NCBI GenBank assembly: GCA_037379345.1
Contig: CM074518.1
Span: forward strand, 15,686,001 to 15,750,000
Source: Perna viridis
Lineage: Eukaryota
Direction of reading: 5' to 3'
Length of the DNA stretch: 64,000 nucleotides
This document shows positions 3,553 to 58,561 of this stretch, piece after piece (within the stretch, counting starts at the first letter, position 1; the number at the start of each line of letters is the position of its first letter). A program made the translations under genes and the position numbers. The notes beneath the pieces are model-generated. The model was not told the origin of the DNA. It saw only the letters and a program-made list of their open reading frames with translations, and searched no databases.

Positions 3553-4060
3553 CTAGTTCATAAATATAACAGAAACCTTGTCCGGATTCCTGTGGGTGCA
3601 ATAATCATTGGTTACATTTTTTCCTGTGAAAGGCTTGTTTAGATCAATACATAAATGTATATCACATGTAGGGCAACTATTCAACGAGAAATGCTCCAAA
3701 GCAGTTATTATGTACAAAAACCTGTATCATACATTGGCTAGACATGAAACAAATGACAAATTTTATTTTCAGTTATTATTTTTGGGTTACATTTTTGGGT
3801 TTCAATTATAACAAAAATACAAATAAATTATAACGCATGTAGTGCCTTCCTCAAATGTCCTTTGATAAAGTTGAAAACTACTCTCTCTGAAAATATAATT
3901 TTTGAAAGAATATTAATTTTCTTCATGTACACATATCTATACAATTACTTTTTTGCAGTGTTTTAATACCGCGGAAGTGTAGTTGTTAAAATCTCAATAT
4001 TCTGTTAAAAGGTGGAAATAATTTAATGTATCATTTTGTAGCTGCATTAATTAGAAACAA

Positions 4061-4780
4061 AACTTAGAAACACCCACTACAAAAAACTTAGAAATACACA
4101 CCACAAAACTTAGAAACACCCACTACAAAACTCTTAGAAACACCCACTTCAAAAGTCTTAGAAACATCCACTACAAAAAACTTAGAAACACCTACTTCAA
4201 AAGTCTTAGAAACACCCACTACAAAAAACTTAGAAACACCTACTAGAAAAAAAAAACAAAAAACAAAACAAAAAAAAAAAAAACAACGTAGAAATACCCA
4301 CTACAAAAAACTTAGAAACACCTACTAGAAAAAAAAAAAAAAAAAAACAACATAGAAATACCCACTACACAAAACTTAGAAACACCCACTACAAAACTCT
4401 TAGAAACACCCACTTCAAAAGTCTTAGAAATACACACCACAAAACTTAGAAACACCCACTACAAAACTCTTAGAAACACCCACTTCAAAAGTCTTAGAAA
4501 CATCCACTACAAAAAACTTAGAAACACCTACTTCAAAAGTCTTAGAAACACCCACTACAAAAAACTTAGAAACACCTACTAGAAAAAAAAAAACAAAAAA
4601 CAAAACAAAACAAAAAACAACGTAGAAATACCCACTACAAAAAACTTAGAAACACCTACTAGAAAAAAAAAAAACAAAAAAAAAAAAACAAAAAAAAAAA
4701 AAAACGTAGAAATACCCACTACAAAAAACTTAGAAACACCCACTACACAAAACTTAGAAAAACCCACTACAAAAGTCCTT
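4061..4780. repeat. Minisatellite, about 24-bp unit CTTAGAAACACCCACTACAAAAAA, with poly-A interruptions
   Basis: More than 20 visible copies. Confidence 0.95.
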
Positions 4781-11300: not shown

Positions 11301-14300
11301 TTTCTTAACTAACTCCCATAATGAACCCATAAATTCAAAATGTCAATGTTGCAGTCAGCAACTCATGACAGCAACCAAAACTGCTAAAGATTATTGTCAT
11401 CGTTTCAATATCAATTATAGTATAAACTTCCACTTAATGACTCTTGTAAAGATATATATTTCATCAGTGCAAAAATATAACAAACCAAAAAACACCAACT
11501 GAGCAATGAATTCTTGATACCGAATCCCATTTTCACGCTGATACGACATAAATCCGAATATGTTAAGTCTACTTTTATAGACTGTTATAGAATAGAATAG
11601 CAATCGAAGACTAGCCTAGTATATTTCTTACTTGATATTTTTGATTTTTAACTGATTGATATTGAAGAAATAAACAATTAAAAGAAGAACATCAATCAGT
11701 CGACTTTTACACTATACAAACTGTATTTAATTTTTTATGTACACAATTGTAAATGTGCTGCCTAAAACAAGACTGATGCTTCACTACTCCACTAAATCCA
11801 TATTTTGTATATCATTTTCTGTTCGAGTATTCATGACAAAAAAAAAAAACAAAAAAAAACCAAAAAACCTATATTTACCTGGATCCTCTTAAACTAAGTC
11901 GTTTTCTGTCTTTCAGCTTACATGGGAACACTTGCTTTCTGAATAATCTGCTAAGCTCTTTGATATATTAAAGAAGGAAGGATCCACGTTAACATTAGAA
12001 CATGACAATTGACACTGAATATATTTTACAATGGGTAAAAAATTATCCTATATTAACATGCTTTTCACGTGAATTATCTTACCTGAATTTCATGTTATTT
12101 GAAATTTATGTAAAAGCTCGATTCACAGTAAATTCACATGAGATCAGCCACATGGTTTTTGCTTAATTCGGATGAACACCATAAGAAATCTCTAAATATT
12201 TACTACAGCAAAACAATCCAAATGAACATTATAAAATTATCCTATCTTATCGTTCGTTAAGTTACCTTCGTGAGATGGTACTTGTGTATTCACTGCTTCA
12301 ACCAGTCTGTATTTTCCTTGGCTCCAGCTCGTATCTGCTCTTTCCAACACCTCTGATACATTATAAATTCCATGCTTGCCTCCAATATTAAAAAAACTGC
12401 ATGCGACCTGTTAAGCATAAATCAATCAAGGAAATATTATCACTTTCTTTGACACACAGAAATAACTTTCTTAATCATTCGCATATCTTAATTAAGTTGC
12501 ATATTGTCCCATTTTTTTCTTTTTTATAATTTGATGTCTTTTATTATCAATACATATAACCTGACAGTCTCGGCAAGTTATTTATCACACTCGATTCGTG
12601 AATTGTCTTTGGAATAAGAAGGAAGCACATGATATGAACATAGAACATCTTATCCACAATCCACGGACGAAGAATAACAAAACGCCACAAATTTACAAAA
12701 TAATAATATACACACTAACTAATAAAAATAAAAGCAACATATAAAATCTACTTAAATAAACCAAAAGTATACTTGTACATTGTAACTACAGAAAAAAAGA
12801 CATATGGACTCCGCTAAAAGAGTAATCAAGGGAACCAATATTCTAGCGGAAATTAAGAAAGAATGTAATCCGTGGATAGAATTCGGTCCTGGGAAACAGA
12901 CGCATACAACAAAGAACATAAAATAACCAAAATAATACATACATACATAGTAACAAAAGTAAATGAACAACCTGGACTCCACTAAAAACTTGGAGCATGG
13001 AGTAAGCGTCCTCTGCTGTTCTAGAAACACCCACCGAGTAGCTCATAAAAAGTAAAGTCCAGTGAGGAAGAAAGGGGATAGGAAAAACTCTGATACGTTG
13101 AACAAATCAGTTTCCATGGGGCAGATGGGCGCACCTTAGAAATGGGAGTATAACTACAAAAAATGGAAACAACAAAATAACAGAACACTTATCCGATCCA
13201 TTACCAAGTCAAGGCCAAAACAAATCTGCCAAATGAATATTACACCACCGGAGCAGCTGGTATTCAAGGAGACACATGGACTCCTCCTAAAAAAACTATT
13301 TTCAAACTGAAAAAAACCACATACATGGACTCCACTAAAAATTGGGGGTATAGACAAAAACACTGGTAGAGTTAACAGTCTCTGCCTTTCGAGAATTACG
13401 CACCGACTTATTAATATGTAATAAAATACCAGTGTATTACATATTGAAGCTACTAAATTGTAAAGACATAGCGAGTTAAAAATGACATATAAAAGAAATC
13501 ACACATGAATGTATTATCGAAGTAAATAACGTGATAAAATAATCGAATCAATTTACTACACTGTACTGCATTAAAAATATAAAAGAGAACTACATAAATA
13601 TTGCGTTGGTAAAATGTTGGAACTGTAGGCCATTATTGTGATCAGTGTCTTCCTATTTTTTTAATACTGATAAAGGTTCGTACTTCATATATAAATTAAC
13701 AATTGGTGGTTTATAAAAATATGAAATAAATGTTAAAGAATTTCCGGCCTAAATATTTAAAACGGAAATAACAAATTATACAAAGGACTGTTCCTTGTTA
13801 TGAGGCACCATTATTTATAAAGATATCTTAAATTTCAATCACAGATTACATATATAAAGTGAAAGGTGACTTAATGAGGACAGCCTGCTAAACCGAATAA
13901 AACATTGTATGAAAATCTTCTGAATTCTGATGTTCAAATTCAGATATATTTTCAAATATCGTTATTTTCCTTATTGGAAGATTAAACAAATGAAGTATGC
14001 ACCAAGTGATATAGTATTGTTTTGATTATATCAGATGCAGATAATCTCCAAAAACAATGTTATATATCTGCCATTACCATATCAGAACATGTAATACTTA
14101 AGGAACTGCTTTTTGTTGGCGATGTCTACTAAAGATTCGCCCGTTAAAGAGTTTCAAAGCATATAATCGAGAAATAAAACAGTTTCTCAGCTCAGTATTG
14201 AATATGTGTTTATTTCACATACAAATCAGAGGGATATTATTTATTATTGGTTGTTTTATTTATTTCTGTCTTTTCTCTTCAGAGGTAGTAATATTGTGTT

Positions 14301-17300
14301 TATCAATAAAATCTGTGTCAAACATTGATAACTTGATTTATCAAAGGTGTTACTTGATTTCACTCAAGTAAATGCTCATCCAAAACTATATTTCACCTTA
14401 CCTGATAAACCTTTTTTGCCCAATGGCGAAATGACTCTTCCTGTCCACATAATTCATCGCCCTCTCCCAAGCTATATATTCGTGTTGCACCAAGTGATTC
14501 TATTGTTTTATCTATTAATTGGCTGAAGGCGCAAAACTTTGGGTAGGCTCTAGATCCTAATCCAAACACACTGAACTTGATATGACCGAGTGACTGTGGC
14601 AAATATCTGTTTGACTGTCGACTCGAAAATCTGCTGTGGTTGTCATTGTCATATTTTCCACTTTAATATGCAGTGATTTAATTATAATACAAGGGCAAAC
14701 TAGGGAAATAAAGCTGCTATTCGTTTTCGCAATAAATACTACTTGTAACAGTTTCTTTATTTCATTATACTAGAACTTGTCGTTACTTGAGCAAGTCAGT
14801 GTTTGTTTCTGGAAAGTAATGTTTGCTTATTCTACCGGTTTATCTTGTCCATACTCCAATTGTTTAGTGGAGTTCGGGTTTCTCATTCATTTTTCCAGTT
14901 TCTGTGTGTATTATTTTACGAAAGTGTTACCTTTGTGATTTGTCAGTGTTCATGGTTTAGTGTTTGTCCTTAAGCTTGGATCATGAAAATAATGTTCATC
15001 TTAATCATGGTCTACGGTTTAACTATACAACAGTAGAGTATACTTATGAAACAACAAGAAGAAAGTCTACCGAACAGACACAGTAACAAAACACAACATG
15101 TCATTCCCTCTATTAGTATACATAGGGATTCGACCAAATAATTGACAATAATCCATGATCATTTTCTTTAAAAAACTATGATAGCAACATTCAGTATGTT
15201 TATACAGCTGTAACTGACTTACATTAAACGTCCTGGTAATTCTTTGATTGTCGTTAATGCATGTGCAAATGTCTACAAATGATTTAATATTTCAATGAAC
15301 ATGAAAATCTTACACAGTGAAAACCGTCTATTATTAGAAGCCAAACCTCTTCCGACCTTTACAGTTAGTCTGGTTTAGACAAGTGTTTGGTCCACAAAGG
15401 TTTTACTACATTCAACATTTTTCATTCCGTTTGTATTGGTGTCTCTTTGACATATTTACCATCGACATTCTCGTTATAATCAAATTGTTAATATGGACTT
15501 TAAAAAGTGTCTGGCTCAGACAGGTTTATGTAATATACAATGTTTAGTACAGACAGGTTTCACAGTAGTTAATGTTTCCGATATGTATCAATTAGTCACG
15601 TTACTCTCATATAGATGTTATAATCATTCACAGTGTTAATCTTACTGGAAACCATTTTTGAAAACTCGTGTCTCAAGTATCATGCTTTTCCTGTTAATTC
15701 GTATCCCATGATACGGGAAAAACCTGGTTTTGGTACAACAAAATGCCACCAGTTGATTGGACATATCTAACATGTACCACATACTTTTTTTTAAAGTACT
15801 TCAAAGTTAATCTGATTTCTGACTGACCTATTATATTGTATTTCAAATCAGATTGTATCATGACCATTTTGTACTTATAATTTGCATTAAGTGTTATAAA
15901 CTAATGTTTCCCTTTTCTGTTGTTTAAAAATGAAAAAAGGTTAAAATAAACAAGATAATACCTTTCCATTCTCAGGTGGATCTCCGTTTCCGAATGTACT
16001 TGTTACAAACAATATGAACTCTTCATGTTTAAGTTCTTTGATATTATAATGATCCATAATCAAAACCTGTAAAGTAATATTCTAGCATTCTTTCTTCGAG
16101 TAATTGTGAGAAGATCTCGGCCCTGTCATTGATGTTTCTATATGCAATTTAATTAAGGTAAAACAGATCAACTAAGAACAAACAAAAAACTAATACTTTT
16201 TCATTATTGTCCCTTACATTTTGTCTACATATTCATTGTTGTTTAAAAAAAATGGTATTTTCAATTAACTAAATTATATAACAATTTCATTCCTACCCGA
16301 ACATTGAAGTTTTGCCTGAACATTTTATGAAGGGTATTGGCAAACATCTCTGATTTTCCTGTTTCAGTAGCATACAATATTGTACACTTTACTCGCTGTG
16401 CCATACTTTGTTTCATCAGACTAAACCATTGGTAAATAACACTGAAATCATGAAAAAGAGATTGGAGGAAAACAAATAAAAGCTATCTTCTCAACTCCTT
16501 TACACTGTCTTCAGTTGGAAAAGGGAAATCTAGGGAACCAGGATTGGAGCGGTAATAAAAGAGAACATGAATCCAAAAACACTGACAAAACGAAAATAAC
16601 AGACACACATAACGTACAAAGAACAAGATATGATAAAAAACAACACACACATCAAACGTAAATGAGATTCACACGTGGAATATTTCATGTAATGATTAAT
16701 AGCGTACTTGCATTAAACCTGCAATTTCCATCGATCCAACTCTCAGTGTATGGTTTAAAATCGAAACAGTTCATTCATCTATTTGATTTTTGTCATCAGT
16801 AGGTGAATCATCCTGTGTTATAATTCCTTTTTCTATCTTGTTTCTATTCCATTAAATCAGACATTTTTCCTCGTTTTCCAGGGCCAACATGTTTTTTATA
16901 TAACTAGCACTATGACAATTATTTAACAATTCGTTGATCGTCATTTTGGAATATTCAATTTATATTGACCAATGTGTGGTTAGAATTATGTCACATGACT
17001 CGATGAACTTTTACCAACCTCGACAGAATCTTAAAACTCAGTTTACGTCTCGGTTTTGGTTGACGCACGTATTGGTCCTTTCGCCATACATAGGTTCTCC
17101 AGGCTTCGTCCTACCAAGACAACTTTTGTTTTACTTAGGTTACAATATTTGTTTTAGATTTGGAAATGAAATGGTGAAACGCCTAGTAAATCTACCAATA
17201 TTATAATTGAATCAATCTTTCTATACAACTATAAAAACGAAAAGGTAAAAATTGTACTATGCATTTCTTTAAATAAAAATTGCTGTAATTAATGACAAAA

Positions 17301-20300
17301 AAATAGTGTTTTAAAGGTAGTAACATGCTCGTTCAGGTACCTGGTGATGAAATAAAAACTGAAACTCATCATTACAATGTAAAAATAAAGACATTGAATC
17401 TTTACGTCAAGGTTAAAAATCTTGCGTCTGGTATCAAGTGTTTAAAAATTGTTAAGTTGTACGATATGTACAAAACCGAGATTTGTTCGTAAAGTTACCA
17501 TTAATGAATACAAGAGATTATCAATAACATAATTGAAAGTAGTGGAAGCTTTTAACAAATCACCCTCCCCTTTGAGGCAATGAGACAATTAAGTTTGCCA
17601 AAATATAACATGTTTGCATTTTATCAATGGTACATGTACGTTGGAAAGTCATTTATTTACTATCTACCAGAAATAGATGGCAGATTTCGGGAGTCACATG
17701 TATATGTACTAATGTATCACAACAAGTATAGAATTCCGAACTATTACGGCTTTTACTTGTACCTGGTATTCGTAGGAAGGTTTCAATTTAAACAACAACA
17801 TTTCTTGGTGAAACACAGACATCAGACTCCCACTGATAGGAGGAACAATCCAAACCCAATCAGCTGGGCATCCTCCTCTTTGTCTGTATTCGTTTTGCAT
17901 AAAATTCATGAAAGATTCTGATGCACTGTGATGATCGACAATGGTAGCTCCTACAGCCTTATACAAGAAATGAACCGATCAGAAGTCGTCGCAAAAGCAT
18001 ATGACGTTGTAAATGATATCATTCTTTCAAATTCCACATTTGATGGTCGCACAACAAAGCTAGAGACAATATGTACTATTTGATTAATTAATTTAAGTTT
18101 TTCGTCCTATGGTGAGGTCTTGTTTTCGTTATCTTTAATTTTATATGCATTAAGTTAGGTAATTCTTATGTTATCTACATTGTGTATGTATAGTCTTTGT
18201 TTCCTATTTTCACGTTTTGTCATGTACTTGAAGTTTTATGATTCTGGAATGTCTTTCTTTTTTAATGATTATGGAATGTCTTTCTATTTTTATGCCTTGA
18301 TATTTTTACCTTTATATGGCAGTAATATATTGTTTTTTTAAAATATACCCGAAAACTGTGAATAACTGCGATGTTGATTTCTACCACTGCTTTGTCGCGC
18401 CATAGAGAGGCATTGCTTTTAGTGTCAAGGCCAATTGCTCCAGCTATTTTCTGCAATGATAAGCAGTATGCAATAAAGTTATGTATCAAAAGTGATAAAT
18501 TTGCAATATGATTGATTATCTATTTGATCTCCATCTATGAAGTATATTATCCTTAGCTGTGTCTCATGATGCTAATCTTAATGAAGCGATTCGGACAGTT
18601 ATGTTTATTTATAACCACTCTTGTTTTCATAATCTCCTGGCTCTGGACAAGTACCAAAATTGTATGTCTTTGTTTGTTGCGATAAAGTTAGAGTGAAATT
18701 GAGATGTATGGGAATGTGCTGGCCACAGTGTGAAAGTTTGAATTCTTGAAAGTAGTTAGGAATGAGTGGTGAAAGTGAATAGATGTTCATTATTTGACAA
18801 AGTAATTATATATATATATATATATCCACAGAGAGTGAAGCGGGAGGGATTTTGGATAAAAGAACTCCGTGTTTTACACCCACACGAAATTAACAAAATA
18901 CGTTAAGTTCTTCCTATTTTGTACAGTTTCTTATAACAGTGTTTGTAAATATTTTCAGTTTTATGGTTCAGTATTCAAGATCAACACACAACGTGTGTCT
19001 ATAACACAATGTTCAAGATCTTTCTTACTGTCGATAAAATATTATACGTCACAGGTATTCACCTGATTAGGTAGTGAGTTGTGATCACAGACCATTTACT
19101 TTCATATACACTCAGTTTATTCAAGGCACTGAAGAAGGTCATTTGTTGACTGAAAATTTTGCTCATTATACATTTTATTATAGTCTATAAACATCATTAT
19201 CGGTATCGTTGTTCAATCCGTTAGACTTATATAATTTATTTGTTTGTACTGCATCATCATGACTCGACGATCCGATACCCATTAAATTTGCTGGTTGGCA
19301 GATTTCTTTAGACTTAATTTATATATATATATAAAGTCTAAAGGAATCTGCCAACCAGCAAACTTAATGGGTATCGGATCGTCGAGTATAGATATAAAAT
19401 AAATATGTATATAAGGACTATGACTTGACTTAAAACCAGTGCATAGAAACAACTCGGTTACATGTGTATAATGTGTCAACAAACTATTATTTGCATGTTG
19501 CAGAGTCTTCTATTTATAAAAGCAGATCGTGCTGTCATCACTAAACTCCAAATTTGATGATCAATTTAAAAATATGTTAAACTGCGTACTCGTTTATGTC
19601 TTTATTTCAAACGATCGGAAACCGGCAAATGTACATACATATAAAATGTTTGTTCTTAAAACTGCACGCAAAATAGGTAGAAATGAGAATTAGTCAGAGT
19701 GATGTACATTGTTTCCACATGCGTTGTTCATTTTTTCCGTACCTCTAGCATGTTATATCTATGCTTATCACACAGATCTCTGGCACCAACTTCTGTCCCC
19801 ATGTACCAGCCACTGAATGGACAAGCTGTAAACTGTAGACCGCCACAGTCTAACATCATATTAGCCACTGCTGGGAGACAATACCAACGGATACCAAGTT
19901 CTTTGATTCCTGGGTATCTACACACGAAATGTTATTTTACATTTTTTGCTTTTGTTTTGTGTTTTATCTGTACTAATAATTTTTTGTTTAATCACTTTAA
20001 CTTTTTACTTTTATATTGATTGTTTATACTTATAACTCTTATTATATTACTATCATTTAAAAGCATCTAGAGCAATACTTATGTGTGACGAAATTAAGAA
20101 AAATGAGGTCAATACGTTTACACATGATAGGTAAATAAAAAGATGAGTCAGGCACTTAATCGTGAAATTAGGCTTTCTAAATCTGTAGTAAACGTATTTA
20201 TATGTAACTGACTGTCGTATTGTGCAAAACAAAAAAAAAAAAAAAAAAAATCCATACATGCAAAACAAAATAAAACAAAACAAAACAGATTAAGTAAATT

Positions 20301-36893: not shown

Positions 36894-38118
36894 TAAATAT
36901 AGCCCAGGGGTATTCATAACTTGAAAGAAAATAATCACGTCCCCCTTTTTGATATGATCGTCCCGAAAATCGTTTTACCTTTAGGTTCAGTTTTTGCTCT
37001 AAAACATATCTTAAGTCTTTGAATATTGTAGCGATTAACTCTGTGAAAAGTGTATTTTATGTTTTTCTAGCAAGCATGTTCACTTCCGGCTTTTTTATAA
37101 CAAAACCTAAAACAAAAATTACATTATCTCCCCTTTCCCGCGTGACCAATAAGTGGAACTCTCCTTGCAGCGCGGCATTCCCACTGGAGGACGTTTTACC
37201 AGTAGGAGTGTAAGCTTTATGTACAGTTTAATTTTTTTTAGGCCATCCCATTTCTGTAGTAAAGACTTTTGTATACTTTTGAGGGAGTATCAACTGTATT
37301 ATCAATGTCATATCATGTGCCTCATCTGTGACAGTGACACTCTTATTTACTGTGTATTTGTTTCTTATTTTACTGCTTGTTTTTTCGTCATTTTAATTAA
37401 TGATATTTACGCAGATCTACGCTAAATTAAAAGTTAATATTTTCTATTACATCTTTTTTGGTTAAACTAATTTTATATAATTGTAATAAAATTTAGGTCC
37501 TATGTCAGTTTTTATCGCACGATTTATTGCTTTGTGATATCAAATTTAAGCTTAAATTCTAATTCAAAATCATAATTGACAATGGGATATATTTTATAGT
37601 GCTTTTTCGTTATCTTATTATTTTTTTAATTTCGTATATTTGTCCCCTATTTCCATGTTATCTAATACGGTTACAAAATACTAGATTAAAATGAAAGGTT
37701 ACGCCCTAATGTCAACAGCGTTTGCCGCGTGTCGCGAACTTGCATTATTGTTGATAGATTATTACTGGATTAATATACTGACTTGCAAAATAGCGCGTGC
37801 CGCTGGCAGAACAGGATATACTTACTCTTCTGTAAGCACCTGCTGTCACGACCGGTTTTTTGTGGGAGTTCATATTGCCAGTGCTTTAGTGTTTTTTGTG
37901 ACATCTTGTTTTCCTTATCGTCAGTTTTTATCTGTAATCTTTTTTTTTTATTTGATTGTGTATGTAGATCGCCTTTGCTTCATGTGTTCACGTTAAGGCT
38001 ATGTTTTTTTAGGATCCTGACGTATTTGAGTCACTCCACTGCCGACGTTAATATGTCGATATATCAATAGATGTTTTTTTTTTTCATCAAAAGAGAGACC
38101 AATACCTGCTGAATAGTT

Positions 38119-38212: not shown

Positions 38213-41200
38213 CTAAACAGAAGAACATGTTAATCTGAGTTATATGTGCTATAAGGATGCTGGTACAAATTCATGAAATAGGAATAGAAGTCGGAGTGTA
38301 TAGACTGATAATAATAAAAAATGTATTATAACATATGCAAACTGGATACAATGATATGGAAGCCATTTTTTGGTATCCCGCCGTTAATAAATTACGTTAA
38401 AATTTGTAAGCTGAGTCTGCCTAAGGAGAAACCTATTGTTAATTAAAAAAAATGTTGACAACGGCAAACAACTCACAGTCTTGATATGATTTATAACATG
38501 TTTGTAATATACATATGGAATTTTCTTTTGATCTTATAGTCAAATAACCAACTTAAAACTGTTCACCTTTAAAAACCATGGTCTTACATGACGATTTGAT
38601 ATTATATAATGATTTTCACGTCACTGAAAATAAATCATTCATTTGCTTTACAAGTAAGTAATGGTCTAACATAAAGATTCAAACTTTATTCCATAGTTTA
38701 AACCCCGCCCATCACAGTACGTAAAAGGGAGATACATATATGGACAACCACCAATTATGAAGTCAATATCGGGTAAGAGCGCGTTACTACGGCAAATATT
38801 GTTTATTTTCTACACAGTAATAAAATATCGTAATCATTTCAAAAATTTTGAGGAACTACTTTTGTACATTTTAATTCATGTTCAGCTTTGTCTTCTTTTA
38901 ATCCAATTAAGTCTTAATGACTTGTGCTGTAATAAGTCTATCATAATGTTGATTTTATTGTAGAGCTCTAGAATGGCACGCCTACTTCTCTTTTTTATAA
39001 GCATCCTTTCGAAGGAATACACTTTTTTCCAAATTTGAAAAGTCACAGTTTATAAAGGTTTCCACAATACACCAATGAATATCCACCACGAATTAACATA
39101 CACTGTTAATCTAGAATAACATAACAGGAGAAATGTGCCATGTTTTGTCGCAACCTCGAGTAGAGTGTAATTTGTAACAGTAACTTCTATACATTTTTAC
39201 TGTGTAGTCAAGTATTTGATAGTCACCAATAAACAGATGTGTTAAATAATTATAATCCAATACAAACTGGGTAATGTTCATTCTATTTGAGAAGTTTTTA
39301 TATTCCATTTCACCGATCAAATTCTGTCCTAAATTTATGACTTGATCGGTAAATAAATTTATCTTAACATCACTCAGTTGTATTCTGTCACCTACATTTA
39401 CTCCAGTTTCTCGTTTATCACTTCTGGTTAAACCCAAGCGTGTAGTTGAGTGTGATATTATTCAGTTATTATCACCTAGCGTCCAATTATGTGGCAGTTT
39501 TGTATTCTCATTTACCTAAAGTACATTTGTTTTGGTAGGTTGAAGATTTTAGTGGCGTAGGTCTGAATATCGTTTTACAATGTTGAAAATACGTTGTAGT
39601 TCTGCTCTGGAACGGAGTACGGCTACTTCATCAGCACATGTTGGTATTGCAATATAGATGTTTCCAAGTTTTAACCCAATAGAGTTTCTCTCAAGTTCTT
39701 CAAGTAGATCTTGTAAACATGTATTATTTAGAAAAATATAGTTTAGAAAAAGTGAGTCGATCAAATGCCTTTTTTGTTTTTTTTCCAAATCCTTTACTGT
39801 GATCTCCCTTACATTTTACTTTTATAGTTAATCCTGTGTATAGATCTCTGATAATCAATAAAAAATCCGGTTGTACACCTTTATCAAGTAATTTGCTGAA
39901 TAAGAAGACTATTTAAATGTCTACCCCGGACTTGACTTTTTATGAGCAACTCGGCGAGTGTTTCTAGAAAAGCAGAGGACGCTTACCCTACCGGTGCACC
40001 TGGTCCATGCTCCCAGTTTTTAGTGGAGTCCGAGTTGCTCATTTACTTTTGTTACTTTGTATGTATGATTTTAGTTACTTTATGTTCTTTGTTGTGTATG
40101 TCTGTTTTCCATGTCTGCTCTTTGTCCCTGGATTACATTCTTTTGATTACCGCTATAACTTTGGTTACCTTGATTACTCTTACAATATATATTTACTTAT
40201 TTCCTCTTATGCAGAGATTTTCACATGAATAATGAAAAGGAAAAACGATTATTATTATATGAATCACATAAAAATGTACTAAATATCAGAAAAAAAATAA
40301 TGGGAGTGAATCGCTGAAAGTTACACAGGAGGTGGTAAAAAATGTCCTTTATGGAAAGTTTTGTACATTCTGAAGGTATACTGTAAGCAAATTTTATTGA
40401 AAAAGTCAAGTTCATCACTTTCTAGTTCGAAATCAGTATTGCAGGATAAGATATTAACAGGGAAGTTAACAGGTGCTACACTGTCTAGGTTTACGCTAAA
40501 CTGAATTGGACTAATGTTAATAATGTCTTTCCAAAGATCATCACGTTCGTCGTTCAATGTACTACATGAGACTAAGATGTGTTCTACGATATTTGAAAAT
40601 AACATCCCACATCGATCACAAGGTAATATGTTATCGTCTTGTTTAATAACGGAACATAAGTCATCAACATATTTAGCTGCTTCTCGTTGTTCTGGGTAAA
40701 GGTTTGCTATAGTCCAGGCACGGTGTGGTTTAATTTCGCTTTGTATACATCTGGATAGGGTAAAATCCTCGTCGCTTGACAGCATCGAATACCACTCAGA
40801 ATGTTCAGTCTTTTTATCTGATCCCTGACAATAGCTGACCATGTTTTCTTTGATGGACATTTACCAGAGTCCAAAAATGTAACAAGGTGTTCTGTCATAT
40901 CGTATTTATGAGCTAGTCTATACACGTCAGGAATAAGACCCAAGTTTTAGAACATTTATATTTGAATTCGAATAGCCTGGTCATCATAATCCTTCTAGGG
41001 AATGCATTCGATTTTAGTCTACATATTCTGCCAAAGAATAATAACTTGCATTTATCAATGTAACACTCGATGCTGAACTAACCTAACAAACTTGTACAAT
41101 TGTCCGAACATGTCCGTTTCGAGAGTCCTTGTAACGTTTTACATGCGAATTTATGTGACCGGTCAAGCATCTCAGTTTCAGATTGAGTTAAGCTTCTCCA

Positions 41201-44200
41201 AAGTTCACAACCATAAAAGACTTTGTGTAACATAACTGTTAAACTATCTTTGAACAAGTCAGTGGGTTTACAATTGACGAGTGAATTCCAGAGTTGATAA
41301 CGGACAACACGGATCAGCGCAAAGACCGACAGGCATTGAAAGTTTCGTTCGTTGATTTTAAAGAACTCTCCAAAGAGTAATCAACGGAACCAATGTTATA
41401 GCGGTAATCAAAAGAATGTAATCCAGGGACAAAGAGCAGACATGGAAAACAGACATACACAACAAAGAACATAAAGTAACTAAAATTATACATACAAAGT
41501 AATAAAAGCAAATGAGCAACTCGGACCCTACTAAAATCTGGGAGCATGGACCAGGTGCACCGGTAGGGTAAGCGTCCTCTGCTTTTCTAGAAACACCCGC
41601 CGAGTTGCTCATAAAAAGTCAAGTCCGGGGTAGACAAACGAGGAAAGGAAAACTATGACCCGTTGAATAAATCAGTCTTCATGGTGCAGATGAATACACC
41701 ATAACGACCCACGAGTTCATGATGACCATAAAACTTCTGTAGTGATGACGTCAATCTTGTAGCAACAAAACCCTGTTCCAGAAGCCTATTTGTTAGAGTT
41801 CTAGCGCGATACAAAAAGTCTGCGTAGTTTTGGCAAGCTCTGGTATAACGTATGAGTTGTGATATGAACACACCATACGCTGGTGCCGAAGGAATGTTGC
41901 CACAGATGAAAGGAAAGTTGACAATACTGAATGAAAAGTCATCACATTTGTCGTAAAGTTTTGTCAATAGTTTTCCTTTTCCATCGATGTCTAAGTGTAG
42001 GTCAAGATATGAGGCTGACTTTACAGTGTCTGTAGTATCCTTTATCTCAAGTTCTTTTGGGTAGATGCAATGTATCAAATCCCCAAAATTAGGATTGTTT
42101 AAAGATAATAAGTCATCTATATAGCGGAAACTGAGATTGAAGGATCTATACAAACGATATTCGTTCTTTCTGATCAGATCAGCTATAAAGTCAGCCTCAG
42201 AAGAGTGAAAGAATGGATCAGCAAGTAAAGGAGCACAATGTGTTCCAATAGGAATGCCGACCGTTTGATGAAAAACACGTCCACCACAGTGGACAAATAT
42301 GTTGTGGATTAAGTATCCCAACATGTTTAGAAGAAGTAACTAAGGGTATTGTGTCACCATACAATGTTAGTTTTTTTTAATCATTGCGGGGATTTACACC
42401 ATAATGTAAAACTTGACTTTTCGAGGGAAAGAATTTTAACGCCCATGAAGTGCTATAATGTTCACATAAATCGAAGAGATTATGCATTTCGTGTTCATTT
42501 GATGATATCAGAACTATATCGTCTGCTTGCACAGAAGTGCTGACACAAATGTCAAGTAACATAGCACCGCGTTTTGACCAGTCAATATCATGAAGTAGAT
42601 CATTAATGCAAACAAGGTAAAATAGAGCTGACAAAACACCACCTTGTCGTACACCATGTTCAAGAGGAAAACAACGAGACATGTTGTTTCGAAACAGGAC
42701 ACAACTGTTCATGCCACTGTGCGTGTTATCGATCAAAGTGTTCCCGTGTATACCATGTCTATAAAGTTTCAGTTACAAGGCGGAGTGCCACACTGTGTCA
42801 AATGTTTTCATGCTATCTAGGAGGACGACACAAACTTTATTATGACGTTCGATGTAGTGATAAACAACCTCTTGTAAATTGAAAGAAGCAAACATGCTTG
42901 AAAGTTGTTTCTCGTGAGCCATTTGTAAAGGGTGTGGAAAGTTTCTTTTCAGAGAATGAAGGCGTGTTACTAAGGTTTTTTCAAAAAACGTTTGAGATAG
43001 AGCATATTAATGATATTCCACGGTACGAATTAGGATCGCTTTTCTTTTTATTACCGCCTTTAACAAGTGGAATAACTGCACTAGTCTTCCAGCACAAGGG
43101 AATATAGCATGATTCAAGTATTATGTTGAATAAGTTACACAGGTGTTTTATAAGATTCTTTCCGCCGTATTTGATGTCTTCGTAGTGTGGTAGCCTGTTT
43201 TTTTACTGTATATATTATGTTTTATTATATTTTGACAGTATTGTATTGTAAATTTATGTTTCGCATTTATTGCATTCTTTATATGAATAAAGATAGTATT
43301 TGATGAATATTTGAATTATTAAACCTATTTGGTTAATTGTTTTATTTGACGATTTACGCTAACTGGACTTGTGGACAGACGACGAATTCTACTGGTTTGT
43401 TAAGTTTCATTTCTTCTATATTTAACTTCAAAGGTTTCGAGTTAAATCTTCATGGTTGATTAGACCGCATACTTTCTTTATTTCTATTGGTCATTTTCTT
43501 TTGGCGGTAAGATTCTTTTGTTCTTTATTCGGAGACGCACTTACTGTAAAACTTTCATTGGTATAGGATTGGAAAAAAACTATCCAGACGAGACTATCTA
43601 CCATTTGTGATATTTCTTGTGTTCTTGTTTATCTGAGACATAGGAGTCTATTTCTTGAAAGGTCAGTTTCTTTCTCTGTTATTAATATTTCGTTAATAGT
43701 CCAGAAAATAGTATTTTAGCCGGCATGAGTTATTTGCATGAGACGGTTCAATGTTAGAATGGCGAATGCGAGATGTGCGCTGTATGAATGTTTAAAATGC
43801 ATAAATTTCTAGATAAAGAATATGTTGACATTAAATGAGCATTATTTCATTTTTATTCATATTTTTCCTAACTAGAGTATTAGCGAATATAAATAGGATA
43901 TTTGAATAAATTGCCGTATGAATGAGGATTCGATTCGAGTGCTCCTGAATGAGTGATGTTAATATTCTATCTTTTAAAGTTAGCGCTACGAAAAACACTT
44001 TATTTAATTGTGGTCAATGTTATTGTTTCCTTAGGAGTACAAATCAAGTATTCACGGGTAAATGAATGAATACAATCTATTTATAAGTGTCATTTGTTAT
44101 ACAGGTACTTTTCATGATGAACCATGGGATGATATTGATGTAGATTTTTAAGATTCAGGATAGCCTTTGCACCTTGATGTGAGGTAGGCAGTGTATTATG

Positions 44201-47200
44201 TTTGTTTTAGTTATATTTTGTTAATTTGCTATGGTTTTGGCCTATCGCATAACTTTGCAATCAGCATTATGTTTTTATCATTTTGTTAATATTTTGATTG
44301 AGATTCGTATTGCTTGGCAATCGTTATAATTTTCATGCCTGATTTGGTAACACGCAAATTTGCGAGTCATTAACATATTTCAAGAGTTTTGAGGTCATCG
44401 TATAATATACTGATGAGACCGTACTGAACTTGCTACTTTGTATTTATTACTGTATTTGTTTTATAGGGCCTATTTCCTGTATTTGATCCCGTGTTGTCGT
44501 ATACAGTAGAATAAAACGAATCTTAACCTTTGATGTCTTGATGACTCTATATTAGCCCATTCTAAGAGCTGTTACAGTAGGATATATTATCCAAAGCGGT
44601 ATATTTGTTGCTTGGCAGATTGCTACAAATATGATATCTTATTAACGGTAAATCGCTCAATTTGATATCATTAATTTGACAGTGCAGACGAATTTCACGA
44701 ACAAGCTCATCAATGGAATTGATGTTTTCTCGATTTGTTAACGTGTCGTCAAATTTGAATAGTGATTCAAAATGTTCAGCCCACGCATTACATATGTCAT
44801 TATCGTTAGTGTGTGATACACCTTTCACGTTTAGCTCACGACAGATAGTTTTATGTTGTCTTCTACTTTTTAAAATGGACCACATGTACTTTTGATCAGT
44901 TTCAACAGAATCTTCAATCATTTTCCACCACTTTTGCAAATGTTCATTATACGCGTTGTCCAGTTGGTGTCGGAAATCCCTCTTAGCGTTCTTATAGTTT
45001 AAAAAATGTGCATCATTACGACCATGAACTTTGCCATTAAGAATCCATTAAGAATCCATGCAGTTTGTTTTTCTCTCATCGTTTTTGGTAGACATCAACA
45101 GTTTCAGGCGAGGCAGAGTGTCGTTTTCGGCGGACTTGATTGCGTCAACTATACTTTTATAGTACACTTCTATATCATCCGGGGAAGCAGCGGCTGGAGC
45201 TTGAACACACCATAAATTTTGAGACAATGCAAACGAGTAGTAAATTAAAGCGTCTGAGGTTTTAGCTTTTGACCAAGTAACTTTCTCACAAGCAAATTCA
45301 TTAATAGTGGCACTATTTGAGAACGGATTTGAGTCTGTCATATTGTCATAAGCACATGCTATTGGTTTATGGTCCGAAACATTGTACATATGGTCATCGT
45401 CCGTTAAAAAAAACTTTACTAACATCTCGCAAATTGTCTCTATGATTAGTTATGTGATCAATTACAGAATTTGGACCGTTAGAGTATGATTGGAAAGTGT
45501 GGGTAGGCCCTCTAGCAAATTCTGGAATGTGAAGGGACACCTTATTGTTTTGAAGCAATAACTCTTCCAATAGGCTGCTCCGAGATACGGGGCCCAGACA
45601 CTTTACAATGGAAATCGCCAAGCATAAAAACTGTCCCGTGGTTAGATAATGCACTGTAAATATCGAAAAGGTATTCGAGTTCGCGGATAAATAGATCATG
45701 TGGTTGTATGACAGCAGGTACACAGACAAAAATAAAATGCTTGGTTCATTTGGAATTTTCAGTTCTATAACACATATTCTGCTACTGTCTATGTCTATTT
45801 CGTATATAAAAAGATATAAATGTTTTGAAACTATAACACTCACTCCACTACGGGCATTGTATCTAAAATTCTCGGGGAAAAATTCATCAACGCCATTCCC
45901 ATAAGCTTTATAACGACGACTGTCAATAGTGTGAAGAAAATCAAATTGTGATTTACGTAACCAGTGTTCGGACAATGCAATAATATCAATGTTGCTTTTC
46001 TGTAAAAAGATAGGGAACAGCTTACATAATGCCTCTACAGTTCCGACAAGCAATATCAAGTTTCATTGTCTAGTTACTGTATATCTGTGTAGTTATTTAT
46101 GTCCTAATTTTTCATTTCGAAAAACAGCCAAAGGAAGCCAATTTTTCATGAAGATACCTTCAGGCCAGAAAGAGGGTTCATGTAATTTATATTCGTCACA
46201 TTCGTCAATGTTAACTTGAGCGGAGGCAATTCCCCTGTTTGACCTGTCGAAGTAACGGAGATGTGTTACTCATACACCTTTCTCTAAAAGACGAAGTGTA
46301 TTTGTTGATACCACCAACATAGAAACGACTTATTTTACGCTTTTCTTTTCGCACATAACTGCAAAATTTGGAAGAACTTATAGGATAACATGCTGATGTC
46401 GGAAAATGCACTGGGATACCTTTATTACTAAGACATGTATCATTTAAAGGTTCAGACATATTTTCCCTCCAGTATTCACAAATATCAACACGCTGAGCAT
46501 TAGTGGGTATGTCCCTTATTCTTGTATCGGAAGACAGTTTTTACACGAGTCAGAGAGTTTTCAGACCTAGGAGTTTCCAATGGATCATTGCTGTGCAATA
46601 TTTGCGGGATGTCAGAGATTCTGGCATTTACAGATGAAACGCAGTGCGTAGATCGTCCTTGTGATTCTGGGATATCAGAGCGCCTAGAATAATCAAGTGA
46701 TATAAAGTTTGTACTTCTTTTGTTTGGTGGCGGAAAGTCAGAACATTAGACATTGTCTGATGATACAAGGTGGGTATTTCTTGTTGAAGAATTGAACGTA
46801 GACTTGGTAGTATGGTCGACTCCTTCAAGCTCAAATTGATTAGGTTTGGTCTTTAGAATTTCAGCATTCATAGTGTAACATGATCTCACCAATTCACAGT
46901 TCAATACATCCACTATATATCAACTAAAACGCCAAAACTTTTTTTCAGTATTAACAACGACCATATATATCAGGGACAGATAACCAAAAAAAAAGTAATT
47001 TGTTGAATAAGAAGAATATTTACAATGTATTACGACAAGGATAAGCTTCTGATATTAAAAGACTAGCCAATGATGGGCATTATCCTGGAGGAGAGCCAAA
47101 TTGTAAGTTACATTGCAGGTGAGAACCTAAATTAAGTCTATTCAAGATACAATATTCATGTCTCAGTTGTCTAAGAATAGATTTTAGAGTGATACCTCGA

Positions 47201-51624: not shown

Positions 51625-51751
51625 GTTTTAGTGGAGTCCGAGCTGCTCAGTTACATTTGTTACTTTGTTGTCTGTTTTCAGTGTCTGGCCCTTGTACCTG
51701 GATTACATTCTTTTGATTTCCGCTAGAACCTTGGTTCCCTTGATTACTCTT
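51625..51751 (+). mobile_element. Short Penelope-like 3' segment
   Basis: TAGTGGAGTCCGAG...CCTGGATTACATTCTTTTGAT...GATTACTCTT. Confidence 0.8.
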
Positions 51752-52856
51752 TAATCAATGTTTACTAATGGGGTGGATGTAGAAAATACAAGCATTAACA
51801 ATACTTGTACTGCTACATTTGTGCCACACTTAGTTGAAAACCTTAAATCCGTTCTATCCTCTTTCCATCTTTCTACAAAACCCAAACGATGATTGTGATC
51901 TTGAGTCCATGTATTGTATTCCTATTGTATTCCTGGACTCCATATAAACAACACTCCGTAGATCTAAAAACGTCTTTCAAATCTGGAAATATGAATACTT
52001 ACAACTGTCAGGGTCTCAAGTCTTACTACGACACTTGATACTTTCGTAATGGTATCAATTACATTTTTGTTATATTTTGGAGTCGAAAGTTCATAATCAA
52101 GAAATAATTCAGGGAAACCTCAATATATTATTTTCTATTACGCGCTGGCCATCTATGTCGCATTGCTTTACCCAGAGCGATAACAAGGGATTAGGTGCAG
52201 ACATAAATGGCAGCCTGTGGTTTAGCAATGAAATATTGGAGTTTCCGTTAATAATTTCGATTCAAATAGGACTAGTTTCTTCATATTTTTGAATAGACGC
52301 TGGCGTTTACGTTGCACGAAATGTTGGTCATGTGTTTATCACTTTTTTGGCATGGCTGTGGTCTTAAGAGTTTTGAAGCATGTCATATTAGAATCGGAAA
52401 ATAACAGCATTTATACCTTTAATTTGTCAATTATGTGTTTTTCTTAAATTTTATTCTCCATACTCCGTTGAAATTTCAATTTAAAAGCATTATACATTGT
52501 TCTTAGGCTAAGAAAGATGGAACACCTAGATATAAAAAACACAGTATTTGGCTGATATCCGTAATACTAAAACAGTTACAAATAAACTTGTAAAATGTAA
52601 CAGACGCTGTAAAAATGATTGAATTATTAATTTTCCTTTGAGTTGGACGTGTTTTTAAACAAAATATTGCAATGTGAATAAACAGTCTCCGGGGCAAGTT
52701 TGAAATTCCGGTGAGTGTATAAATGATCTTCGCTATTTTAAGTCGCAGGAAAAAAGTTTTTGCTAGAGATGATGCACTAACATTTTAGTGAAAAAATTAC
52801 ATAAGTTACATATTTACCATGCTTACCATCGACGCACAATAAGCATTTAAAACATA

Positions 52857-53285
52857 TTTCCTCTGTGAAATCTCATTTCCTTTAAGGAAATTCTGATTTT
52901 TTTCCTTAAGGAAAAACTATATGTCAAATTTCCTCATAGGAAATTTTATAATGAGCATTTTCTCTTAGAAAACACTTTTTCCTTAAGGAAATTTATTGAG
53001 TTGAAATTTCCTCTAAGGAAAAGTGTTTCCTTAAGGAAATATATCAAAATAAAATTTCTTTTGAGGAAATTCCATCACTTAAAATTTCCTTAAAGGAAAA
53101 ACTAGGGAAGAACTTTTTTCCTTAGGGAAACTTATCATGTCAAACTTTCCTAGAAGGAAATTTCATCTCATCAAGTTTCCTTTGAGGAAATTTTCTAACT
53201 TGAAATTTCCTTAAAGGAAAAAAAAGGTCTTCCGAAAATTCACCAAAACAAAATCTCTTTTGCAAAAATTCTATCTGAGGAAAAT
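52857..53285. repeat. Array of about 14 palindromic TTTCC-N4/5-GGAAA motifs with variable spacers
   Basis: Motif starts 52857, 52876, 52901, 52929, 52959, 52978, 53007, 53026, 53055, 53085, 53117, 53146, 53176, 53206. Confidence 0.85.
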
Positions 53286-55738: not shown

Positions 55739-58561
55739 GATTACTTTAGGCCAGATCAATGATGTATCCATGCAAGCATCGAATTTTGCTCCTGAGAGCA
55801 CTTGTCTCAGACCAGATCAATGGTAAATTACCCTTAAATATGTTATGGATGTTTTGTGGAAAATAAATTAGAAAAGGCACGAGAAAGTTTGAAGATTCCT
55901 TGATTTAGAAGTTATTTTCTTACAAATCAGAAAGTTATTTATTTTGCTAACAATAAGTATATTTCAAAGCTGTTAGTGCGTGTAATAATATAGGCTTCGA
56001 TTACTACCATTGATTATCTGGTTATTCTTATTAAGTATTAAAATATATATAAGCACTGTTACAACGACTCGTTGACTACGTAGTACCAATTGCCCTTTAC
56101 ATTGAAGAACTCAGTATCAGTCCATATACATTTTAGACACTACATATGGTTGGGGTGGTTCATGATGTAAAAAAAAACCATCGAACAAACGATGCTTTTT
56201 TGGTCTATATATGCTGTATTTTTTAAGTAAAAGTAGTTTTGTATTACATATATTTTTTTAGATAACCATATGATCATCTCTCACTAAAATTAACCATACT
56301 AAACCGAATCAAGAACGGTAACTCTTGCAAAGTGCCAATATATAATTTTAATTTAGAAAGATCAGTAAATGACAAAGACTGCATGATTAAGTGGTGTGTA
56401 ACTTTTTATGAATTAGAAATAATAAATGAATGGATGTTTTTTTTACATATAAAGACTGCTACTTAAACAGACTGAGAACAGGAGTGGTCTTGTTGATACT
56501 ATTGACATGCAACTAAAATATTATGCTCATGTACTTCCTTATGAGCACATGCACACAAGCACTGACTGTTAATTTTAATGAACAGTATATGTACAATATG
56601 ATATTCTTAATAATTGTATTTTGACAGATGAAATGCATAAAAATTTTCATATGTCAAAGTTCTTTGTGTAGGAGATCACATACAGAAAAGAACATGTAAA
56701 ATTAATGTTATGAACTATACACTCACATGTATAAGGAATCCATTTCGAACGGAACTTTTTGTGTATTTTGTAATCATCGGTAAGTGTCATCATGCATAAA
56801 ATATGCATGAAGTACTATCAGTAAAGGCTGACCTAAGCAGAGCGATAATTTAAACATTCACCTAATGTCCAGACCTTGTGTAACATTTATGGGAAATGGA
56901 TTCTTGCTACGGTATCATTTTTGTTGGAAAAAGCAAGTTTGTGTATTAATTTTTTTATGATTATGTACATCGATAAAGCTAGAACTGTAGATTTCTACGT
57001 AGATTCGGGTAACTTGAATCCGAAGGGAAAACCACCGGATCCTGATGATAAATTATCACAATGCCACTGGTCACAATGCCACTGGTCACAAGGTCGTTTT
57101 CGTTAAACAAAGTACTTATATGCAGAACAGGACAGTTTGTTCAGTTTTCGTAAGTAAATAGTGACATCTTTTCTAATTTATTGATGGTAGGATTTCTCGT
57201 GTATTATTCGGGAATATATTTACCTATAAGGGAGGCAACATGAGAATTTCTACGATAAAAAAATATATTAATTACCAATGCGGCCTATTTTGCATAGATG
57301 ACAACTCTTATGTTCTTAAGATAATCCCACCACCTCCCTGTTTTGACAGACATTTTCTAATTAGAGCAACGTAATTTACAAATAATCAACGGATCAGGTC
57401 TATTAAGTTTTTGCAGATATTTTTCCAGTCCTATAGGTCCCTTTTCAGATTTAGGTAATCTGCCGATATCACCGAACATCATGATATAAAATCATCAATT
57501 AATTTTTGTATAGTTAACTCTTTAAAATCATTGGCAAGTATCAAATTTGACTACTCGGGGTATCCAAATATACGATAAACCTATATTTTCAAAAATTCCG
57601 TTCCTGGACTCGACCCACATGAATAAGGGTAACAATAAAATTAACAAACACTAATCCGAACCATAATCATGTCAAGTCCAAAATAAATCTTGCAAAATAG
57701 ATATGACACCACTGGAGCAGCTGGTACCGCAATGGTCTTGACTTGGTACAGGCATTCACTTCCGGTAGTCCATGGGCTGAGATAACCCCAACTCATCGAC
57801 CAAAATATGATTTTCAGTTACAAATGTACCCTTATACCTTTCATTTACGAATCATTTTATCGCCAAAAAATGAACTGAAGTATTTTTGTGTTTTTTTTAC
57901 TACTACGTTTTATATCTCATTGAGGCAAAATTACATTTTTTTATTAGTAAAACTTGAAACAATTCGTGTATAAGTCAATTGGGACCTTTACAATGCAAGT
58001 CAAACATTGGTTCTTTTGTGTGTGTTATCTTTGTGTTTTAAAGCTTGTATAGGTATCTTCTCCGATAAAAAGAAATTCAGAAAAATAAAATTCTCTAAAG
58101 GTTTTTAATTCACTTTTTCAACTGGTAAAACTAAATAATTAAAAACAACTGATCCTTTGCTTCTACTTGTGTTCGCAAGTTCAAATTAACATCAACTATT
58201 TATAAATAAAACACAAACACAGTGTTTGGATATCAGGTTGCCTTACAGTACTGTAAAATTTAATTGATTTAAAAAATAAAGTATATTACATAACACTGTC
58301 TGTCTACGCTGCATACAAATAACAAAACAAACAATCTAAAAAAGAAAACAATATGTTAAACATACACCATAAAATAAAACTGACATAATTAAAAAGAAAC
58401 CAAAAACCTTACTACATGAAAAGCAGCCATCGAATACTTAATACTACTTCTAGTTGACCGTTACAACCATTTCAGCTAAAATACCATTTCAAACCCGTGC
58501 CTTAAACCACTATATTACAGGGCTCATTTACACTGTACATGTATATATACCATTAGATACC

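Follow-up and report, generated by a model that had tools for sequence, protein, structure and literature searches.

Two palindromes in a conserved 3' UTR motif of a Naiad Penelope-like element from Perna viridis: a probable RNA homodimer and candidate self-cleaving RNA

The 3' untranslated region (UTR) of a Penelope-like element (PLE) of the Naiad clade, copies of which lie in a 64,000-nt stretch of Perna viridis DNA (CM074518.1, 15,686,001-15,750,000; hereafter the window, to whose numbering positions refer), carries a conserved RNA motif of about 100 nt with two palindromes. Judging from their covariation, these palindromes very probably join two RNA molecules into a homodimer around an invariant core (CA..GCUYAC). 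We also favour, with considerably less confidence, the reading that the dimer cleaves itself, which would restrict processing to transcripts with two motifs and would replace the hammerhead ribozyme in a subgroup of the Naiads. The motif occupies the hammerhead slot of other PLEs (PMC4209133).

The original prediction described a 101-nt unit closed by a perfect 13-bp stem and starting about 40 nt after a reverse transcriptase (RT) stop codon, and both of its locations, 39942-40042 (+) and 41612-41512 (-), were confirmed. The two units are 96% identical, and the latter starts 40 nt past the stop at 41653 of a 228-aa RT remnant. Using BLAST and a covariance model (CM), we located the further copies and the diverged relatives that had been noted in the window, with slightly shifted bounds and with two extra copies (Table 1). 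The tails of the copies finish at GATTACTCTT(T), in agreement with the shared end reported for the full-tailed copies. Folding z-scores were -3.1 to -4.7 on both strands, the outer stem being the driver. The differences among the window copies are post-insertion mutations and deletions, often fold-breaking; the supposedly pairing-preserving change from GAG to GGG turned out to be a private G-to-A change of the 39942 copy (the family letter is G), which breaks the conserved helix P1 described below.

A degenerate core pattern matched at least 122 loci in metagenome contigs and seven in the own genome; among the 80 metagenome matches listed, 61 came from one assembly. Many of these relatives lie 40-170 nt downstream of a Naiad-like RT, two lie at 400-540 nt, and their RTs are 35-66% identical to that of the window where at least 120 residues align. 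The same pattern gave 0 matches in viral contigs and 47 in prokaryote genomes, 46 of which are chance matches (no palindromes, no CM match). The 47th is a 407-bp contig (L187) in a bacterial assembly, which is likely a eukaryotic contamination because it matches by eye the 3' UTR end of a published pearl-oyster Naiad. The supplement of PMC8557442 contains 54 Naiad consensi, which are named here by file order; in 27 of them the terminal 300-600 bases were inspected by eye, and nine of these proved to have the present motif (three from oysters, one each from an ark clam and a pearl oyster, and four from hemichordate families). Seven of the nine were found by name and two through motif words; no computation made use of them.

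For the covariation analysis, 18 family-level rows, hand-picked as one per distinct type, were aligned by MAFFT without structure (alignment A1), leaving out two likely chance rows and most near-copies. The revised structure consists of the outer stem P0, the hairpin P5, the helix P1 (CGGGUG/CACCYG), a weak core hairpin P3 and the two palindromes. Its covariation score was 0.452, against 0.183 in shuffled alignments and 0.09-0.13 in slid controls, with 79 doubly changed cells against 27 in shuffled alignments among families from different hosts; note that P0 and P5 are out of alignment in the last six rows and that the shuffles ignore relatedness. Covariation across subfamilies, which had been proposed as a check on the motif, is thus present for P0, P5 and the palindromes by these shuffle-based scores, and the claim of a conserved, covarying, cis-acting RNA in a Penelope-like 3' UTR holds. 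Among the three inner hairpins proposed, the third corresponds to P5 and stands, whereas the first and second do not (score 0.137 against 0.139 shuffled). RNAalifold, unaided, picked P1 and palindrome 1. P1 shows no two-sided covariation because its sequence is almost invariant, and the invariance of P1 and the core in A1 is partly by construction, since the search pattern fixed those letters; in the nine published consensi, the P1 and core letters are as in A1 with one exception at the YACYC end (by eye). Alternative partners of GGGUG (YACYC, or YGCUY as in the first hairpin proposed) can pair in 18/18 rows but give poorer mean fold energies, -32.1 and -30.2 kcal/mol versus -36.4 kcal/mol with P1; a two-state switch is conceivable.

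The palindromes carry the case for a dimer. Palindrome 1 (10 nt) directly follows GGGUG; 97.8% of its cells are paired (87/89), 5/5 pairs covary, and its covariation score is 1.16 against 0.27 in shuffled alignments and 0.14-0.25 in slid controls. Its innermost pair, which encloses no loop, occurs as five different pair types. Since adjacent bases cannot pair in a hairpin, this covariation points to pairing between two molecules, the same argument as was made for PLE hammerheads (PMC4209133). The predicted energies are -7.6 to -23.2 kcal/mol for the self-dimer versus 0 to -4.3 kcal/mol for the hairpin. In the metagenome loci, the palindrome is perfect in 53 and has 4/5 pairs in 49, with a mean of 4.17/5 pairs against 1.26/5 in the 47 prokaryote matches, the sole perfect palindrome among the latter being that of the likely contaminant. 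The metagenome and own-genome loci together contain 14 distinct perfect 10-mers. One-mismatch variants are G-U in 22 cases (11 of them one variant) and A-C in nine, leaning to the sense RNA as the acting strand. Palindrome 2 (6-8 nt), situated just before CACC, has at least 6 nt in 15/18 rows, 4 nt in one and none in two decayed copies; a fixed-column count gave weaker pairing (67-78%) because the register shifts. By-eye reading of the nine published consensi showed palindrome 2 in 9/9, and a palindrome 1 that is perfect in seven and contains a single G-U in two.

The carrier of the motif is a Naiad. Pfam (5 open reading frames, ORFs) and PDB searches gave no name for the RT fragment in the window; the element was identified by motifs of full-length copies. 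Longer genomic copies have a GIY-YIG endonuclease N-terminal to the RT, followed by CxC, GPKY and DKA motifs, with the residues DCSC, KGPKY and ADKAQNN, and YGLECNLCGLIYxGET was read upstream of the RT in loci L031, L033 and the L343 unit (by eye against PMC8557442). The full unit is 3,410 bp, tail-to-head junctions occur in 30/30 loci (see below), and 38-nt go-back joints are present. Genome-wide, the exact core pattern matched 10,001 times and the tail pattern 15,340 times, with 0 matches for the reversed control of either. The flanks of tail-anchored copies appear AT-rich, although this is an uncounted impression; a (TA)n target bias is, with an insertion-in-fingers domain, a further hallmark of Naiads. 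The following are shared with the Naiads of Craig et al. 2021 (PMC8557442): an N-terminal GIY-YIG, CxC, DKA and GPKY in about 3.4 kb, a body of 3.4-4.4 kb, partial tandems (pseudo-long terminal repeats, pseudo-LTRs), a tail of 30-40 bp, heavy 5' truncation, 38-nt tail repeats and very high copy number. The motif itself is in the nine consensi from that work, in which, in the parts consulted, only hammerheads and selenocysteine insertion sequences (SECIS) were looked for, Naiads are said to lack canonical hammerheads, and no 3' UTR fold, palindrome or dimer is described. The last 38 nt of the tail are often duplicated, in RNA reads as well as in genomic copies. We also observed a conserved CTGCTGGTGGA..CCCCGAGG box at the 5' start of the element (L033:3700-3760 (-), L313-L342) and, reading by eye, where many published Naiad consensi begin; it is possibly a promoter, splice or protein-binding site.

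The motif had been supposed to spread as short copies. Among the first 100 tail-anchored copies (near-duplicate loci kept; six rows poorly anchored), 69 span the whole motif, many of them extending into the RT, 22 begin inside it and nine begin after it. The 3' ends are fixed at GATTACTCTT(T), and the 5' ends are scattered from beyond -687 to +192. Because of these scattered 5' ends and the whole motif in 69/100, the short copies are ordinary 5' truncations rather than a separate small element, and a non-autonomous short interspersed nuclear element or retrozyme family, which would have a fixed 5' end, was rejected. As a separate observation, seven of 99 selected copies (L384, L410, L418, L429, L446, L465, L466) share the identical 9-nt deletion, located between two GC dinucleotides in the core hairpin P3; this may reflect repeated RT slippage or one subfamily.

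The copies with an element 5' end are tandems: in 30/30 such loci the own tail of the element lies upstream, joined seamlessly at one shared junction, and the lengths range across the motif to complete units. Once one array and one duplicate are collapsed, 17 independent loci remain, in which the upstream parts start at +229 to -821 relative to the motif; nine keep a second whole motif and six start inside it. The array (C3, about 46,023,000-46,081,500; L326-L338, L343, L344) consists of about 17 whole Naiad units head to tail, with a period of 3,409-3,410 bp, 99.1-100% alike and with shared frameshifts, a 5'-truncated part coming first and a normal tail last; it may have arisen by rolling-circle insertion or later tandem amplification. 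A template that is circular or concatemeric, with reading from an internal start at a fixed place, would fit the tandems, though a circle is not required. Such a template was proposed for hammerhead PLEs (PMC4209133), and internal initiation was shown for PAc (PMC11167929). Reverse transcription starts about 140 nt downstream of the motif, at the tail end, and the priming role suggested for the motif is thereby discounted; RT recognition and processing remain as two live functions.

If the dimer cuts, the following scheme can be drawn. In a tandem transcript, made of the upstream pseudo-LTR and the full element, two motifs would lie 3.4 kb from each other. Pairing of palindrome 1 with 1' and of 2 with 2' would create two four-way junctions of mixed origin, in each of which P1 comes from one copy and the core hairpin from its partner. 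Cutting of the dimer would follow, perhaps aided by the Naiad protein and, judging by likeness to the twister-sister (TS) ribozyme, possibly at GCUY^AC; re-joining would give a unit-length circle or a processed monomer. From the fixed tail site the RT would begin copying and go round more than once, leaving partial tandems. A lone motif copy would stay uncut, which fits the read-through copies.

In sister Naiads the same slot contains other modules. Five published consensi (three mussel and two clam families; by eye) have a different, twister-like motif, as does another Naiad family of the same genome, with 229 matches to its pattern and an RT about 47-48% identical; this family is present in the window as well (Table 1). 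The twister-like motif matches twister type-P5 of Rfam (RF02684) element by element, with GAGG-U, UAA, P4 with the loop GUACCAAGUC and a perfect 9-bp P5. The pseudoknot T1 is ACC/GGU versus CCC/GGG in Rfam and T2 is GU/AC (GG/CC in clams) versus GC/GC, both pseudoknots having changed in step, and P1 is replaced by two palindromic stretches. Rfam searches on 12 such loci (E<=10) gave no match, and the assignment therefore rests on a letter-by-letter comparison with the Rfam consensus. Both motifs share the UTR slot and the two-palindrome design, although the core lies between the palindromes in the present motif and outside them in the twister-like one, and the twister type-P5 core (GAGGG/UAA, UCCCAAGC loop, two pseudoknots) is not conserved in the present motif. 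In a tree of 14 RT fragments, the twister lineage falls between two groups with the present motif (branch 100/100; midpoint root, no outgroup), which suggests that one 3' UTR module replaced the other between Naiad lineages. Four further published ends, from coral, acanthocephalan, octopus and spider Naiads, contain hammerhead core blocks by eye: the spider in canonical order, the other three rearranged to cleavage-site block, GAAA, CUGAUGA, an order that resembles the non-circular type-SGC (PMC10085705). We offer as a tentative generalisation, which may well prove too broad, that all Naiads keep a dimer-gated cutting RNA in the 3' UTR, its chemistry (this fold, a palindrome-armed twister, rearranged hammerheads) being swapped by lineage.

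The motif was compared with known RNA classes. The unit has no Rfam match at E<=5, and over the whole window at that threshold the only hits were microRNA-like, sub-threshold matches on an unrelated, near-perfect 126-nt inverted repeat with a short (TA)n loop at 19262-19387. A hammerhead, canonical or minimal, was rejected in agreement with the original prediction, as no CUGANGA or YUGANRA occurs on either UTR strand and Rfam gave no match. SECIS was likewise rejected, its AUGA (unit positions 1-4) being Watson-Crick paired and unconserved and Rfam giving no match; the readable Cys and DKA sites of the element are ordinary codons without in-frame UGA. Against the Rfam consensus of twister, the GAGGG/UAA loop, the L4 UCCCAAGC and the pseudoknots T1/T2 were not found, and GAGGA is present only in the family of the window, varying in other families.

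The closest likeness in letters is to twister sister (RF02681; Zheng 2017, PMC5660989). In letters and in their order, the core GCA(R)G..YGCUYAC agrees with the twister-sister L1 strands (GCAAG, GCUC^AU), which are also those of the lanterns (PMC11620745). The long strand GCUYA is found in 18/18 rows (GCUUAC in 15, GCUCAC in three; partly pattern-fixed), with a final C where twister sister has U, and a C62U change is tolerated in twister sister (PMC11620745). The short strand is GCAAG in two rows, GCAGG in nine, GCAGA in two, ACAGG in three, ACAGA in one and CCAGG in one, G5 being A or C in 5/18 rows. Unlike twister sister, however, the motif lacks the SL4 loop GUGCAAGCC, the local P1 and 3-bp P2 stems and the three- or four-way junction between the strands, and membership was rejected. 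RF02681 had no window match at E<=5, whereas the phage controls scored 74-91 bits; its search of two bacterial genomes with 14 controls gave no match and is uninformative. The phage control contigs (L476-L602, L603-L728) contain many twister-sister ribozymes, often two or three per contig (25 Rfam matches in 20 loci tested), and also type-P5 twisters. TS-like lantern ribozymes cut with little beyond an L1-type loop (PMC11620745), but a lantern was also rejected: in the monomer the core is flanked by non-complementary bases, and P2 would amount to 1 bp closing a 2-3-nt loop. In Rfam 15 and the literature searched (Dfam, Repbase, ZWD, subscription journals and the supplements of other papers not covered), no prior description of the motif was found. 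The fold is apparently an undescribed, unclassified variant of the theme of a palindrome-gated dimer in a PLE 3' repeat, and the element a new member of a known clade. Two further comparisons used general consensus features of the classes: a hepatitis delta virus-like fold was rejected because the loop is purine-rich, P1.1 is not conserved and Rfam gave no match, and likenesses to the pistol and hairpin ribozymes were weighed and dropped.

Retroviral dimer-initiation sites pair two template RNA copies through a self-complementary stretch. The palindromes of the motif would likewise pair two template copies, but they are two, lie in a multiloop, turn over freely in sequence and belong to a capsid-less non-LTR-type element. 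The other likeness is to the minimal dimeric hammerheads of metazoan PLEs (also Lunse 2017, as cited in PMC6765202). In the account of Cervera and de la Pena 2014 (PMC4209133), these are palindromic, act as dimers in the pseudo-LTR/3' repeat slot, and have a covarying palindrome that forces dimerisation of tandem copies, for which a cut-and-circularise role was proposed. The motif shares their slot and the palindrome-driven dimer; unlike them, it has no CUGANGA/GAAA core, it has an outer three-way junction, and its two palindromes are long (10 and 6-8 nt) against a single 2-4-nt loop.

Several results weigh against self-cleavage. The motif fails membership in every named ribozyme family tested, and no circle is needed for the long tandems, which could have come from concatemeric transcripts or DNA recombination. 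Of the 70 copies with a truncation at unit positions 20-58 (29 indel-bearing rows set aside), 12 have 5' ends at positions 41-42 against about 4.4 expected, a modest excess (post-hoc P about 0.008 with a window of 2 nt, 0.13 with one of 4 nt), and seven have 5' ends at position 35. RNA reads also have loose ends at position 42 (103-141 reads in two runs, with mixed flanks). The ends at 41-42, which lie 2-3 nt off the twister-sister-type site, may come from a subpopulation that was cut or from pausing of the RT at the P3 base, and the excess fits the pause equally well. None of the indexed runs holding the sequence is recorded as RNA; three raw RNA runs contain it on both strands, with read-through from many loci, and show no pile-up of read starts or ends, although standard RNA-seq is blind to ends that bear a 2',3'-cyclic phosphate or a 5'-OH and a proven PLE hammerhead likewise leaves no pile-up (PMC11167929). 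Genomic copies show no sharp 5' or 3' boundary at a cut site, and 3' ends inside the motif are rare, scattered and unclustered (by eye). The invariance of P1 and the core, whose letters are pattern-fixed in the aligned loci, also fits protein binding. Finally, the PAc hammerhead, which is protein-assisted, is not needed for insertion in vitro (PMC11167929).

A rather unlikely but serious alternative is that the motif is, much as a retroviral dimer-initiation site, a non-catalytic signal for dimerisation and protein loading, by which a dimeric Naiad RT-endonuclease would pick its own RNA and hold two templates for strand transfer. All the evidence for a dimer (covariation, energies, palindrome counts) applies to it equally, the invariant, non-covarying P1 and core are as often found in protein sites, and no cleavage ends were found in RNA reads or genomic 3' ends; in PAc, moreover, a dimeric protein is predicted, and it binds RNA beside the hammerhead and the RT start (PMC11167929). 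The sister family, however, sets the two-palindrome design inside a twister-like fold, and the palindromes of other PLEs serve a ribozyme (PMC4209133). One core across RTs of the divergence given above would be tight for a co-evolving protein site, and the motif is about 140 nt from the RT start. By analogy with PAc, cleavage and protein loading may coexist.

We consider it improbable that the palindromes act on DNA, whether in cDNA pairing or, within the pseudo-LTR, as an endonuclease or promoter site. A perfect palindrome can pair whichever strand is used, and the antisense strand gives equally good folding z-scores, but the letters of the 14 distinct perfect 10-mers are free to vary between families, which excludes a sequence-reading DNA-binding site, and P1 needs G-U pairs, which become A-C on the opposite strand. 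A loopless 10-mer, moreover, is unable to form a stable cruciform. Still less probable is a neutral inverted repeat, functionless and passively copied with a high-copy element: the often fold-breaking differences among window copies agree with it, but the excess of two-sided covariation over shuffled alignments comes from families of different hosts, and the same layout recurs in published bivalve and hemichordate consensi. That the junction is a telomerase-like template for telomeric repeats, as was speculated from a one-base likeness seen only in the family of the window and from the sister relationship of PLE and telomerase RTs (PMC8557442), is hardly credible, since the base needed as A is C or U in 18/18 aligned relatives (Y being fixed by the pattern) and in the nine published consensi (by eye), other families reading CUUACUC, CUCACUC and similar, the UTR has no TTAGGG or CCCTAA, and insertions occur all along the chromosomes, their ends lying 140 nt downstream and carrying no telomeric repeats.

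What ribozymes do in Penelope-like transposition is unsettled, and the Naiads have served as the counter-example: hugely successful and said to be hammerhead-free, they fed the idea that hammerheads merely ride along. A dimer motif and a twister-like alternative in one slot suggest a general requirement to pair two tandem copies and then, likely, to cut, with interchangeable chemistry. As the motif is about 100 nt long and has natural compensatory variants, the question is tractable in vitro. Small ribozymes of a new class are seldom found, and a natural RNA that assembles with itself via two palindromes is of interest to structural biology and engineering even without cutting.

Table 1. Naiad copies, motif parts and related features in the window
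Feature	Position	Strand	Evidence or remark
5'-truncated Naiad copy: 24 nt of upstream UTR, whole motif, tail ending GATTACTCTT	39918..40181	+	96% identical to 41372-41636 copy
P0 outer stem, 5' strand; pairs with 40030-40042	39942..39954	+	5/6 tested pairs change on both sides
P1 5' strand (family CGGGUG); pairs with 39997-40002	39955..39960	+	RNAalifold choice
Palindrome 1 (UUUCUAGAAA), putative 10-bp intermolecular helix	39961..39970	+	Covariation in all 5 pairs; pairing in 87/89 cells
Conserved core AGCA-GAGGA-CGCU-UACCC, made up of weak hairpin P3 and YACYC; may be catalytic or bind protein	39971..39988	+	Invariant C-A, G-C-U, A-C, C (partly pattern-fixed)
Palindrome 2 (ACCGGU), putative second intermolecular helix	39990..39995	+	Self-complementary over at least 6 nt in 15/18 relatives
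P1 3' strand (CACCUG)	39997..40002	+	Structure model, RNAalifold
P5 hairpin	40009..40029	+	All 5 pairs change on both sides
P0 3' strand	40030..40042	+	Folding z-scores, covariation
Second full motif, 40 nt after RT stop codon	41512..41612	-	BLAST, CM
5'-truncated Naiad copy: C-terminal RT (ORF 41653-42339), 3' UTR, tail	41372..42327	-	92% to full-length unit elsewhere in genome
Older Naiad copy (73-78%), endonuclease-linker region through RT, broken off inside motif; motif portion 33833-33862 (+), 5' part only, interrupted	31510..33862	+	
Truncated copy with 17-nt internal deletion taking out palindrome 2 and P1 3' strand; motif part 13046-12963	12817..13128	-	
Copy truncated inside motif, tail present; motif part 30616-30695	30616..30834	+	
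Copy beginning in P5 loop, tail present; motif 3' part 51626-51649	51626..51752	+	
Diverged motif relative	37779..37894	+	CM 43 bits, E 3e-9
Diverged motif relative; motif part 13409-13327	13304..13417	-	CM 34 bits
Diverged motif relative, newly found; motif part 14788-14886	14785..14898	+	BLAST, CM
Further motif copy, newly found	9325-9384		BLAST, CM
Second Naiad family, twister-like motif	about 8680-8790, within 8591-9296	-	
Second Naiad family, tails	57625-57758 and 13168-13262	-	

Other features of the window include a decayed RT piece (RQGGVLS, ADD) at 42340-43200 (-), adjoining the Naiad 5' junction, which we take to be of the long interspersed nuclear element (LINE) family, and a decayed LINE remnant at 44400-46200 (-) with an endonuclease-like match below the cut-off (Pfam PF03372, E 0.003). 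Unconnected with the motif are a tandem array and two clusters of imperfect inverted or tandem repeats, at 4055-4777, 52875-53275 and 27102-27192.

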